NCBI GenBank assembly: GCA_000004985.1
Contig: GG739181.1
Reading direction: 5' to 3' (one strand)
Length of the DNA: 4,507 bases
Source: Naegleria gruberi
Taxonomy: Eukaryota
Part shown: one piece after another, positions 891-4,507 of the stretch
How positions within the stretch are numbered: position 1 is the stretch's first letter
Layout: each line of letters starts with the position of its first letter
Notes under the pieces: generated by a model
The model's input: the letters and a program-made list of their open reading frames with translations, nothing else
Told to the model about the DNA's origin: nothing
The model's database searches: none
Position numbers and translations under genes: made by a program

Positions 891-1961
891 TTATTGTTTT
901 TCTACAATGAATTCATGATCCTCATGTTCTAGTAACTGTTGCATATCTGAAATCTCTTCTAATGAATTCTTAGTGGTTATTTTGATATTGTCATAATCAA
1001 ATTCATTCTTCAGCTCTTCTACAAGTTCTCTGAATTGCAAATTCTTTAATTTATCCCAAGAGAAGCAAAAGGAGGAATTCTTTCCCTTTCTTCTGAATTC
1101 AATGCTAACTTTAAGGGCATCATACTTCTTCAAACTATTCCATTCTTGTTCAACCTCTGCAACTGTTCGTTTTGCTGTTGTCTTTAAATCTTCCCAAATT
1201 ACATCTCTTATTTCTGACATCATGTTTACACCCCAAGGTTTCAATTGGTGGATATTATTTATAGCTGGGTCAACTGAGGTCAAAATTACTCTTGAAATAT
1301 CTACACCAAGTTTGAGGGAACATTCCCTTCTTGTGTCATCAAAATGGTCTTTTGTCATATTCATGTTTGGCTTATATAACGCATCTGCCTTGTTCATTAA
1401 AACAATGAATCTGTGATCATTACTTTGTTTGATAACATTGATATGTTCTTTGCATTCTTCTTTATCACATTTGGAAAGGGCATCGTATACAACAACAATA
1501 TAGTCCAATAAAAAACGAGAAGTAATAAATTGAACTTTGTGGAGATGATCCTGACTTTCATAGTGTGGGAAGTCCCAAACAGCAAAATTGGATGAGTTAC
1601 TTGTTAGTGGGTATGCTTGAATTTCAGTTGTAGCTATTATACTTGAGGCGTTAGCATTTCTATGAAGGAACTTTTCGACAAATGTTGATTTTCCACATTT
1701 CTTCATTCCAACAACTCCAACGTAGAAGTTTTTCATCAATTCTTGTCTGATTTGATAGTTAATACACGCAGATTTCAACACTCTCAATACTTTCTTCCTT
1801 TCGGAGACACTGACCCAACCAATGGTAGACCCCTTTCCGAAAACTTCTGACCAGTGGTCAAGAATGTAAGCATTATCATCATACTTCAATAAATTGGTGC
1901 GAGTCCAATCAAAAATCAATTTTTCCAAAGTGATACAAAGTAGGTATACTGTGTGAATAGA
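891..1961 (-). CDS. P-loop GTPase domain protein (TRAFAC-class G domain followed by a predicted helical C-terminal region). The 5' end is unresolved: it is either an exon 2 or a segment fused to the upstream lipase ORF. Stop is TAA at 891-893.
   Basis: The ORF track gives 891..1928, but the 'M' at 1926-1928 is a TTG. The same frame stays open up to 1961, and TAG 1962-1964 bounds it. G1/Walker A is GVVGMKKCGKST (1683-1718). A switch-I Thr candidate lies in ATTEIQ. The G3 position reads FAVWDFPH (D at 1572-1574), so the Gly of DxxG is replaced. A beta4-like YIVVVYDA follows, and G4 is LMNKAD (1383-1394). The protein-like sequence MEKLIFDW...SERKKVLRVLKSACINYQIRQELMKNF lies upstream of the first in-frame ATG, so translation cannot begin at an ATG within this frame. 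Confidence 0.7.
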   Translation of the reverse strand, partial: SIHTVYLLCITLEKLIFDWTRTNLLKYDDNAYILDHWSEVFGKGSTIGWVSVSERKKVLRVLKSACINYQIRQELMKNFYVGVVGMKKCGKSTFVEKFLHRNANASSIIATTEIQAYPLTSNSSNFAVWDFPHYESQDHLHKVQFITSRFLLDYIVVVYDALSKCDKEECKEHINVIKQSNDHRFIVLMNKADALYKPNMNMTKDHFDDTRRECSLKLGVDISRVILTSVDPAINNIHQLKPWGVNMMSEIRDVIWEDLKTTAKRTVAEVEQEWNSLKKYDALKVSIEFRRKGKNSSFCFSWDKLKNLQFRELVEELKNEFDYDNIKITTKNSLEEISDMQQLLEHEDHEFIVEKQ

Positions 1962-1984
1962 CTATATAAAAGCTGTCCATGAAT

Positions 1985-2674
1985 NNNNNNNNNNNNNNNN
2001 NNNNNNNNNNNNNNNNNNNNNNNNNNNNNNNNNNNNNNNNNNNNNNNNNNNNNNNNNNNNNNNNNNNNNNNNNNNNNNNNNNNNNNNNNNNNNNNNNNNN
2101 NNNNNNNNNNNNNNNNNNNNNNNNNNNNNNNNNNNNNNNNNNNNNNNNNNNNNNNNNNNNNNNNNNNNNNNNNNNNNNNNNNNNNNNNNNNNNNNNNNNN
2201 NNNNNNNNNNNNNNNNNNNNNNNNNNNNNNNNNNNNNNNNNNNNNNNNNNNNNNNNNNNNNNNNNNNNNNNNNNNNNNNNNNNNNNNNNNNNNNNNNNNN
2301 NNNNNNNNNNNNNNNNNNNNNNNNNNNNNNNNNNNNNNNNNNNNNNNNNNNNNNNNNNNNNNNNNNNNNNNNNNNNNNNNNNNNNNNNNNNNNNNNNNNN
2401 NNNNNNNNNNNNNNNNNNNNNNNNNNNNNNNNNNNNNNNNNNNNNNNNNNNNNNNNNNNNNNNNNNNNNNNNNNNNNNNNNNNNNNNNNNNNNNNNNNNN
2501 NNNNNNNNNNNNNNNNNNNNNNNNNNNNNNNNNNNNNNNNNNNNNNNNNNNNNNNNNNNNNNNNNNNNNNNNNNNNNNNNNNNNNNNNNNNNNNNNNNNN
2601 NNNNNNNNNNNNNNNNNNNNNNNNNNNNNNNNNNNNNNNNNNNNNNNNNNNNNNNNNNNNNNNNNNNNNNNNNN
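1985..2674. other. Assembly gap (690 N).
   Basis: Uninterrupted run of n from 1985 to 2674. The X-runs in ORF-track entries 1916..3610 and 1979..2884 arise only from translating these N. Confidence 0.99.
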
Positions 2675-3610
2675 TTCCTCTTGATGTTCAGTAACTATTT
2701 GCTTATTGTTAGAATAGGAAATGTGAATGTGATTACCAAAAGGAGAAAACTGTGGTGCATATTTGTGAATTACCTTGGCAATTACTTTAGAAAACCACTG
2801 GAAAACAGATATACCAGAATTAATTATTTCTGCTCTATGAACCCTTCCTGTAATACTGGAGATTGCCGACACAACAGTTTTTAGAAAGTTTGACACTTGG
2901 TCAATCAGATCTGATTCAGCAGAAAGACTGATAATTTCACTAACAATACTAATAGATCTTGGAACACAATCTTTTTCGTTGATATAAAAATGGAAATAGT
3001 TCGACTGTTCATCTTTTAGAATTCTTTCTTTGAACTTAACATCAGCCAGCAAGGGAACTCCAAAACCAATGAATTGAATTGGTGGTTTCTTGATGGCCTT
3101 TGCTTCAGTAGCTTGCATCAATCGCGTTGCAAGGATGGCCCCAACTGCTCCACCCATGCTGTGTCCAGTAATAACAACTTGATAACCTTCGTTAATCTTT
3201 TCTAAAAAGTAATCAAGTGGAATGAATTTGGCTCTTTCCAAGAAGCCACTATGTAAAACGCCATATCCATAGTAATTCATGGCAGGGATCAACTTTACAT
3301 CTGTCAAAATATCAGACTTGGAGTAGGAACCTCTAATTGCTACAACAATTCTTTTACGATTTTCATCAGAACAATCAGCCACAACATATCTTGTTTCAAG
3401 TGTTGCCTTTGCGTCCATATCATTAGTAATACTACTACATAGTTTCTTGATACCATGCTCAAATTGGGAATACTCCTTGTTTAATGTGTACAATGGATCA
3501 GGCATGTACGAAATTTCACAAGCAATGGCACAAGTCAACAACAGTTGACAGTATGACTTTGCGTCTGAATAGACCTTGTTATCTTCAGATAATACAGATT
3601 CAAGAACCAT
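2675..3610 (-). CDS. Class 3 (fungal/Rhizomucor-type) lipase domain protein, N-terminal 312 codons. ATG is at 3608-3610 and the 3' end is lost in the gap. No N-terminal signal peptide is apparent.
   Basis: Lipase_3 hallmarks appear in order: RIVVAIRGS (the 'IVVAFRGT'-like block), VLHSGF (VHxGF), the nucleophile elbow VVITGHSMGGAVGAILA (Ser151 codon 3158-3160), FGFGVPLLAD (FGxPRvGN-like), KDCVPR (the RDxVPR Asp at 2969-2971), and GNHIHISY (catalytic His ~2723-2725). An in-frame stop (revcomp 3626-3628) sits immediately upstream of the ATG. An A-rich -1..-8 context (aaaaaaaaccaaATG) precedes the start. Confidence 0.85.
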
Positions 3611-3973: not shown

Positions 3974-4507
3974 ATGTCTTTACCATTCCATGACATTTCA
4001 TTCTCCTTTGATTGTGAAAGTGTACACAATTCCGAGACTCATGGCCATATGAATCTGTACACTCTCCTAAAAACAAGTAAATTCGATACAAATCAATCAA
4101 ATTCTCTACAGGGATGGTGTTCTCCTATTCAACAACAAGAATTATTGCACCTCATCAGGAGTAAATTGGGATTTACTCGTAATTGTTACTTATCTTTGGT
4201 TTTTTCATGTGATGAGAATAGACCATTCGATTATTCATACTTCCACAATGTTCAAGCCAAATACAATCAACCAAATCTGATATTATTCGAAACAAATAGT
4301 GGTTCAATATTTGGAGGATTTACCAGTAAAGCTTGGGTAAGACAACGATCAGACGTGGAGAATGTTAGAGATGAGCATGCCTTTTTATTTTCCATCAACT
4401 TGAATCTTAACAGTGATTCTCCAATACAGAGCATCACCAATGAATCATGTGAAAAATCCAACTTGCACATTTATGGATTGGCTCATTTCCAACAAAAAGT
4501 TGCCATT
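3974..4507 (+). CDS. TLDc-domain protein (Oxr1/NCOA7/Rtc5-like). Start ATG is at 3974 and the 3' end lies beyond the window.
   Basis: Frame 2 is open from the stop TGA 3935-3937 to the window end. It translates to MSLPFHDISFSFDCESVHNSETHGHMNLYTLLKTSKFDTNQSNSLQGWCSPIQQQELLHLIRSKLGFTRNCYLSLVFSCDENRPFDYSYFHNVQAKYNQPNLILFETNSGSIFGGFTSKAWVRQRSDVENVRDEHAFLFSINLN.... This fits the TLDc pattern (W..LLYS..rDG.S...FH..c.....PtLllI....g.vFGGf.S..W.........FLFsL). The start context aaaaaaATGTCT matches the yeast high-expression consensus. The ORF track does not list this ORF because it has no stop within the window. Confidence 0.65.
   Translation, partial: MSLPFHDISFSFDCESVHNSETHGHMNLYTLLKTSKFDTNQSNSLQGWCSPIQQQELLHLIRSKLGFTRNCYLSLVFSCDENRPFDYSYFHNVQAKYNQPNLILFETNSGSIFGGFTSKAWVRQRSDVENVRDEHAFLFSINLNLNSDSPIQSITNESCEKSNLHIYGLAHFQQKVAI

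Follow-up and report, generated by a model that had tools for sequence, protein, structure and literature searches.

Positions 894-3610 on the minus strand of a Naegleria gruberi scaffold of 4507 nucleotides (nt), in the following called the window (G+C content 34.9%), very probably form a single intronless gene. In this assembly the gene is broken by an undersized gap and by a spurious base at 1925/1926. The predicted product belongs to a conserved protist family in which, judged from the sequences, a class-3 lipase and a GTPase are combined in one chain with a hydrophobic membrane segment between them. An earlier note on this DNA had suggested that a single gene encodes a Lipase_3 domain at the N-terminus and a G domain of NKxD type at the C-terminus, and this could be shown with a second, gap-free copy from the same organism. 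The coordinates of the features are summarized in Table 1.

Relatives were collected by an exhaustive HMMER search with the GTPase frame of 356 residues, which yielded 86 sequences. The 29 relatives with at least 844 amino acids (aa) are referred to as long homologues.

One gene across the assembly gap

The gap-free copy is the N. gruberi protein XP_002668194.1 (NAEGRDRAFT_60092, P0103) with 1069 aa, encoded on a separate scaffold of 3253 nt. It was returned by a search seeded with P0003, the orthologue of Willaertia magna, and was aligned with the window by tblastn. In the alignment of residues 726-1069, mismatches and gaps were confined to the upstream end near the frameshift. For the other 675 codons common to the window and P0103 no amino acid difference was detected. 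By simple arithmetic, the 1069 codons and the stop codon take up 3210 nt of the sibling scaffold with its 3253 nt. Hence, the gene is intronless there.

The comparison with P0103 also showed that the gap is undersized by approximately 490 nt, with 690 N in place of 1182 missing nt. It had been claimed that the GTPase segment needs upstream coding sequence lying in the gap, and residues 313-706 of P0103 supply it. The size estimates of the earlier note did not hold: the intact copy has 1069 aa instead of about 900, and 394 codons are hidden in the gap instead of a linker of at most 230. Nor is the hidden part a plain linker, since it contains the catalytic His, a beta-rich module and a hydrophobic membrane segment.

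Table 1 Features of the lipase-GTPase gene in the window; residue numbers refer to P0103 and counts to the 86 relatives
Feature	Position	Strand	Details
5' gene part, codons 1-312	2675..3610	-	open throughout from ATG 3610 to the gap edge; residues 1-312, 100% identity
Nucleophile elbow GHSMG	3152..3166	-	residues 149-153; catalytic Ser151 predicted by motif
NEKDCVPR motif	2957..2980	-	putative catalytic Asp214
Assembly gap	1985..2674		690 N; codons 313-706 (394 aa, 1182 nt) in the gap-free copy
First coding bases past the gap	1927..1984	-	1984 is the last base of codon 706; 1983-1927 encode FMDSFYIVYSHSIPTLYHF, identical to residues 707-725, third frame (frame -2 tblastn match)
Extra G in GG pair (CC on + strand)	1925..1926	-	frame shift into the GTPase frame
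3' gene part, residues 726-1069	894..1925	-	GTPase frame
G domain core	1389..1721	-	residues 794-904
G1 GVVGMKKCGKST	1683-1718	-	GxxxxGKS
G2 Thr	within 1620-1634	-	Thr in 85/86 sequences
G3 DFPH	1563-1574	-	D-[FY]-P-H type
G4 NKAD	1383-1394	-	NKxD; N in 73/86, D in 74/86
G5-like LTSVD	1269-1283	-	T-[CS] G5 in relatives
C-terminal module, about 73 residues	894..1112	-	beta-beta-alpha-alpha-beta-alpha-beta, beta-grasp-like (model)

The open reading frames (ORFs) of the window agree with a gene that is interrupted by the gap. For the lipase frame, the earlier description as open from ATG 3610 to position 2675 without reaching its C-terminus was confirmed with 312 codons. An in-frame stop is located five codons 5' of ATG 3610, and the class-3 lipase domain of this part (2675..3610) stops short of its catalytic His. 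The GTPase frame is open from 1961, directly behind TAG 1962-1964, and terminates with TAA at 893-891, directly followed by a second TAA. As stated before, this frame (1961..891) has no early ATG. The first one in frame is found at 1736-1734, 75 codons past the opening of the frame, 64 codons past the TTG at 1928 and six residues ahead of GVVGMKKCGKST. Stops make up about 5-10% of the codons in the non-coding frames of the window. From this stop count, the chance of 75 stop-free codons upstream of ATG 1736 was calculated as approximately 0.002-0.004, and the same stretch reached its top codon-usage score in the GTPase frame. Because of the long open stretch and the codon usage, the need of the GTPase part for upstream coding sequence is well founded. 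A gene start at the internal ATG 1736 was considered and ruled out, as the 75 preceding codons are conserved and folded.

A second N. gruberi database entry describes the locus in the window itself. XP_002668250.1 (NAEGRDRAFT_82367, P0002), a "predicted protein" with 635 aa, was the best match of the exhaustive HMMER search with 99% identity. This model links ...HISYSNNKQI straight to YDDNAYILDHW... and spans the gap via an invented intron. It is thus a gap-bridging artefact, in which the catalytic His is missing together with the middle module and the membrane segment, and XP_002668250.1 and XP_002668194.1 describe one gene.

Such bridging would also fit two separate genes, a lipase ending in the gap and an independent GTPase starting there, with the known fusions being artefacts of annotation. 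Besides the 635-aa model with its invented intron, the model for W. magna likewise contains a false intron of 80 nt. However, the gap-free N. gruberi product is continuous across both parts, and four homologues (P0016, P0010, P0064 and P0045) are continuous ORFs with both domains. Each of them forms a single uninterrupted frame (934-1213 aa) on its contig, metagenomic contigs included. In addition, the 75 codons ahead of the first ATG of the GTPase frame are conserved and predicted to be helical, with means of at least 90 for blocks of ten residues from residue 11 onward in the structure model described below. Two independent genes are therefore extremely unlikely.

All three frames are open next to the gap. 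Residues 707-725, FMDSFYIVYSHSIPTLYHF, are read as TTC ATG GAC ... CAC TTT, and the window continues with GG AAA AAT TG. Deletion of one G at 1925/1926 gives FMDSFYIVYSHSIPTLYHFEKLIFDW, which is identical to residues 707-732 of P0103. The corrected junction ...HFEKLIFDWTRTNLLKY matches P0103 exactly, and the corresponding ...PTLYHFEKLILQWTHNN of W. magna is close. In W. magna the junction ...PTLYHFEKLILQW lies in one frame. The frame beginning at 1984 indeed stays open for 22 codons up to the stop at 1916-1918, as reported before, but it is not the continuing lipase frame, since the coding frame starts at 1983. The run of N has an estimated length, so that the phase is not transferable across it and the lipase phase at 1984 is meaningless.

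For the overlap of open frames the earlier note had offered a 1-nt indel or a splice junction. The indel was verified, because deletion of a single G reproduces the intact protein exactly. A splice acceptor in 1919-1961 within one gene, with TAG 1962-1964 providing the AG, would match the opening of the GTPase frame right after ...TTTTATATAG and the poor codon usage, in all frames, of the last 66 nt before the gap. In contrast, positions 1983-1927 encode 19 residues that are identical to the intact protein and conserved in W. magna, which marks them as exon. Moreover, the sibling scaffold, with 3210 of 3253 nt coding, leaves no room for an intron. Hence, splicing at this junction is hardly credible.

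The extra base at 1925/1926 is most likely a base-calling error near the contig end. It was judged to be a sequencing error because it lies approximately 60 nt from the contig end, because the remaining 675 shared codons equal those of the other copy and because the neighbouring RPN2 gene also shows a 1-nt frameshift. Alternatively, the frameshift could exist in the organism, and the window copy would then be a real duplicate or allele that was disabled recently, i.e. a pseudogene. The presence of the same gene on two scaffolds of one assembly and the occurrence of frameshifts both here and in RPN2 are in line with this explanation. Against it stand the absence of any amino acid difference in the other shared codons and the position of the shift in the region of lowest read quality. 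RPN2 is an essential proteasome subunit, and its frameshift points to poor sequence rather than to decay. A pseudogene is thus improbable, and a single base error in an intact gene is preferred.

The 3' end of the gene for the 26S proteasome subunit RPN2 is located at 2-843 on the plus strand and is split over two frames. In the match to the Pfam profile RPN2_C, frame 2 covers profile positions 1-33 and frame 1 positions 49-159. A single-base insertion anywhere within 367-419 rejoins RPN2 into one ORF, the likely site being the purine run GAAGAAGAAAGAAGGAAG. This frameshift is probably the second single-base error of the scaffold. For the assembly this means at least two single-base errors in 4.5 kb. 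The stops of RPN2 (841-843) and of the lipase-GTPase gene (893-891) are convergent and only 47 nt apart (844-890), which requires that both 3' untranslated regions are either very short or overlapping. On the other side, a gene with a TLDc domain is arranged divergently. It starts with ATG 3974, 363 nt from the lipase ATG, covers 3974-4507 on the plus strand and leaves the window; its product was matched by Pfam TLD with an E value of 2.6e-8.

Domains of the encoded protein

The lipase domain was identified with Pfam Lipase_3 (PF01764) at residues 89-220 (E 1.9e-17, 63.9 bits, cut-off 22); full-length P0103 scored 61.3 bits. The 5' part is 64% identical to residues 10-315 of P0003. Conservation in the column of the putative catalytic Asp (D217 of P0003) reaches at least 90% among the 29 long homologues. 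The motif of the catalytic His, QHHKMTNYF from residue 333 onward, is hidden in the gap and present in P0103, where it aligns with the conserved column [QD]-x-H-x-[MI]-x-x-Y. With it, the predicted triad Ser151-Asp214-His334/335 was shown to be complete on the level of motifs, in a domain of approximately residues 1-345. The best sequence matches of the lipase part among solved structures were PAD4 (E 4.2e-9) and EDS1 (E 3.3e-8), followed by the lipases of Rhizomucor and Rhizopus (about 1e-5).

The catalytic residues are not kept throughout the family. Approximately one third of the long relatives lack the lipase Ser. In the respective column Ser was found in 17 of 28 aligned members, the others having G, C, E, R or D. 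His is kept in most members with Ser and lost in most members without it.

The codons 313-706 hidden by the gap encode, besides the catalytic His, a beta-rich module with a THFN motif, a helix with DLLYMYA and a hydrophobic stretch. The beta-rich module and the helical segment, approximately residues 390-640, are conserved. For the conserved region of about 345-640 no relative could be detected in Pfam or among the PDB sequences, the latter searched with a profile of 12 sequences. The hydrophobic stretch is rich in Gly and Ala and comprises about 50 residues, approximately 641-690 of P0103. Nearly all windows of 19 residues starting at 643-673 had a hydropathy above 1.5. A comparable stretch upstream of the P-loop was observed in many relatives. 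An N-terminal signal-like or hydrophobic segment is absent from the protein.

The 3' part (894..1925) consists of helices ahead of the G domain, the G domain itself, two further helices and a C-terminal module resembling a beta-grasp. Pfam MMR_HSR1 matched with an E value of 7.2e-8 and 33.0 bits (cut-off 21.9), Pfam Roc with 6.2e-7 and 30.1 bits (cut-off 27). The G domain overall covers residues 794-930 and is packed onto a helical neck at about 695-790. The structure of the 356-residue part was modelled by AlphaFold with the alignment of the 86 sequences, replacing a single-sequence run that gave a predicted local distance difference test (pLDDT) value of 43. The resulting model had a mean pLDDT of 91.7 and a predicted template modelling score of 0.82. 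Model residues 11-77, all of them ahead of the first ATG, form helices with means of at least 90 for blocks of ten residues. The first ten residues, a translation out of frame, averaged 63.

Comparison of the model with the PDB by Foldseek gave as top matches the IRG proteins Irga6, Irgb6 and Irgb10 as well as EHD2, mitofusin 1, GIMAP7 and Toc33, with E values of about 1e-7 and template modelling (TM) scores of 0.31-0.41. Pfam Dynamin_N scored 17.9 bits and stayed under its cut-off of 27; IIGP and AIG1 were absent from the families listed at E values up to 0.1. The G part is an Era/EngB-like TRAFAC G domain with helical extensions, and membership in the IRG or dynamin families is not demonstrable. 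The C-terminal module is composed of the elements E286-291, E297-301, H302-306, H310-321, E326-330, H340-345 and E350-355 in model numbering (E, strand; H, helix). It was not matched to a known family, all Pfam matches being below threshold.

Two observations weigh against the proposed interpretation of the locus. The identity between the window and P0103 was established on the protein level only, so that a sequencing error, rather than an allele, is the probable but not the proven cause of the indel. Furthermore, the Gly of the DxxG motif in G3 is replaced by His in 64 of the 86 relatives, with G in 13, N in two and P in two, so that normal GTP hydrolysis is not assured.

Relatives of the lipase-GTPase protein

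The fusion of both domains was found again in other organisms. Among the 29 long homologues, Lipase_3 was matched in 27 and MMR_HSR1 in 22, with Lipase_3 upstream of the G domain. The orthologue of W. magna, a heterolobosean amoeba like Naegleria, has the same order of Lipase_3 and G domain. Thus, the orthologue search suggested earlier, for both domains in one polypeptide, was successful. P0003, the W. magna protein with 1040 aa, was the second-best match and showed 64% identity in the lipase part and 57% in the GTPase part. At its locus (L001) a single frame stays open from the start of the lipase up to and including the residues aligned with 1983-1880 of the window. The annotated 80-nt intron (L001 8212-8291, JBEGDK010000122.1) is false: the conserved QWTHNNSIAQKTPKYIIQHWSEIF is encoded within it, and it masks a frameshift close to TTTCCAATGTAAAATT. 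Probably, a base error was bridged by this false intron, leaving the 1040-aa model about 27 residues short.

The contigs of two of the four homologues with uninterrupted ORFs look eukaryotic, one with a gene for a CASP golgin and the other with a gene for a hAT transposase. One relative is labelled "lipase, partial [Brachionus plicatilis]". P0045, a relative of 934 aa with Lipase_3 and MMR_HSR1, is encoded at 10001-12805 of a dense contig of 32 kb (L005, ENA ERZ25067493 ctg159106). Its neighbours are a DUF5906 gene (primase/helicase-type) and a gene for a PT-TG/colicin-pyocin DNase. Judged from these neighbours, members of the family may be present in a bacterium or a large virus, too.

In GenBank and UniProt, proteins of this architecture are labelled as "predicted" or "hypothetical" protein, as "lipase, partial" or, automatically, as "EngB". 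No description was found in the literature, neither for the architecture nor for the accession numbers. In the earlier note the architecture was not recognised as a standard, described one. This stands as far as publications are concerned, but the fusion was already deposited in GenBank as XP_002668250.1. The defence-system library of PADLOC gave no meaningful match. In a word-indexed protein search with the segments of the window, the GTPase part had no match and the lipase part only a weak fungal lipase; these negatives are uninformative, because identical database proteins were missed. The same search missed the identical N. gruberi and the 60% identical W. magna proteins, and found them with P0003 as query.

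Known systems and possible function

The lipase part shares with class-3 lipases (PF01764), including EDS1 and PAD4, the alpha/beta-hydrolase core, the GHSMG elbow, the Asp in D-x-VP and the His in H-x-x-x-x-Y. Some members of the EDS1 family have lost catalytic residues, and the same holds for some relatives of the protein described here. In contrast to class-3 lipases, the lipase forms the N-terminal third of a chain of 1069 aa without signal peptide, which continues with a membrane segment and a G domain. Unlike in EDS1, PAD4 and SAG101, no EP domain was matched in Pfam scans of P0103 and the 29 long homologues.

With the TRAFAC GTPases of Era, EngB and TrmE type (MMR_HSR1), the G part has G1 GxxxxGKS, the G2 Thr and G4 NKxD in common. 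It differs by D-[FY]-P-H instead of DxPG in G3, by its position within a helical neck and tail and by the fusion to a lipase; an RNA-binding module of KH type was not found. The dimerising membrane GTPases IRG, GIMAP, Toc33/34, EHD and mitofusin also have a G domain flanked by helical bundles. Mitofusin has a hydrophobic membrane segment in its chain, which is a further similarity. However, the TM-scores towards these proteins reached only 0.31-0.41, and none of them has a lipase.

In amoeba-associated bacteria, multi-domain effectors have been described in which lipase domains are combined with GTPase domains of GIMAP type (Zhang et al. 2012, PMC3482391). These effectors resemble the protein described here in combining a lipase and a GTPase domain in one large polypeptide in an amoeba-related setting. 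In contrast, they are toxin-type proteins of bacteria and contain several further toxin domains, and the likeness is one of domain descriptions only.

From the architecture alone, we infer a membrane-anchored lipase that would be coupled to a nucleotide switch. The hydrophobic stretch 641-690 would be long enough to enter and leave the membrane as a hairpin. Together with the lack of an N-terminal signal-like segment, such a hairpin would leave lipase and G domain together on the cytosolic side of the membrane. The earlier note had called the lipase domain cytosolic; this was a guess, with which the lack of an N-terminal hydrophobic segment agrees. The protein would most likely act as a lipase or phospholipase anchored in the membrane, and the nucleotide state of the G domain would determine its activity, its clustering or how it reaches the substrate, possibly via dimerisation. 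Relatives without Ser and His might serve as non-catalytic partners or regulators. The change from G to H in switch II and the presence of relatives predicted to be catalytically dead suggest regulatory variants.

As a tentative proposal, with a rather small chance of being correct, we consider these proteins to be the first members recognised from an unstudied protist-wide family of approximately 1000-1250 aa, present also in a rotifer assembly and possibly on a bacterial or viral metagenomic contig. In this proposal the DxPH G domain would be the nucleotide switch that activates a membrane-anchored class-3 lipase, and paralogues without Ser and His would be regulatory pseudo-enzymes. One possible role would be that of an effector in cell-autonomous defence or organelle remodelling, following a logic like that of IRG/GBP GTPases combined with an EDS1-like lipase.

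Each of the two domains is common and belongs to a known superfamily. Their covalent connection, a class-3 lipase joined to a GTPase via a membrane segment, is kept across distant organisms. The repeated loss of catalytic residues among the relatives is reminiscent of the lipase-like regulators of plant immunity. Should the lipase be under the control of the G domain, a nucleotide switch would be linked directly to the hydrolysis of lipids at the membrane in this family.

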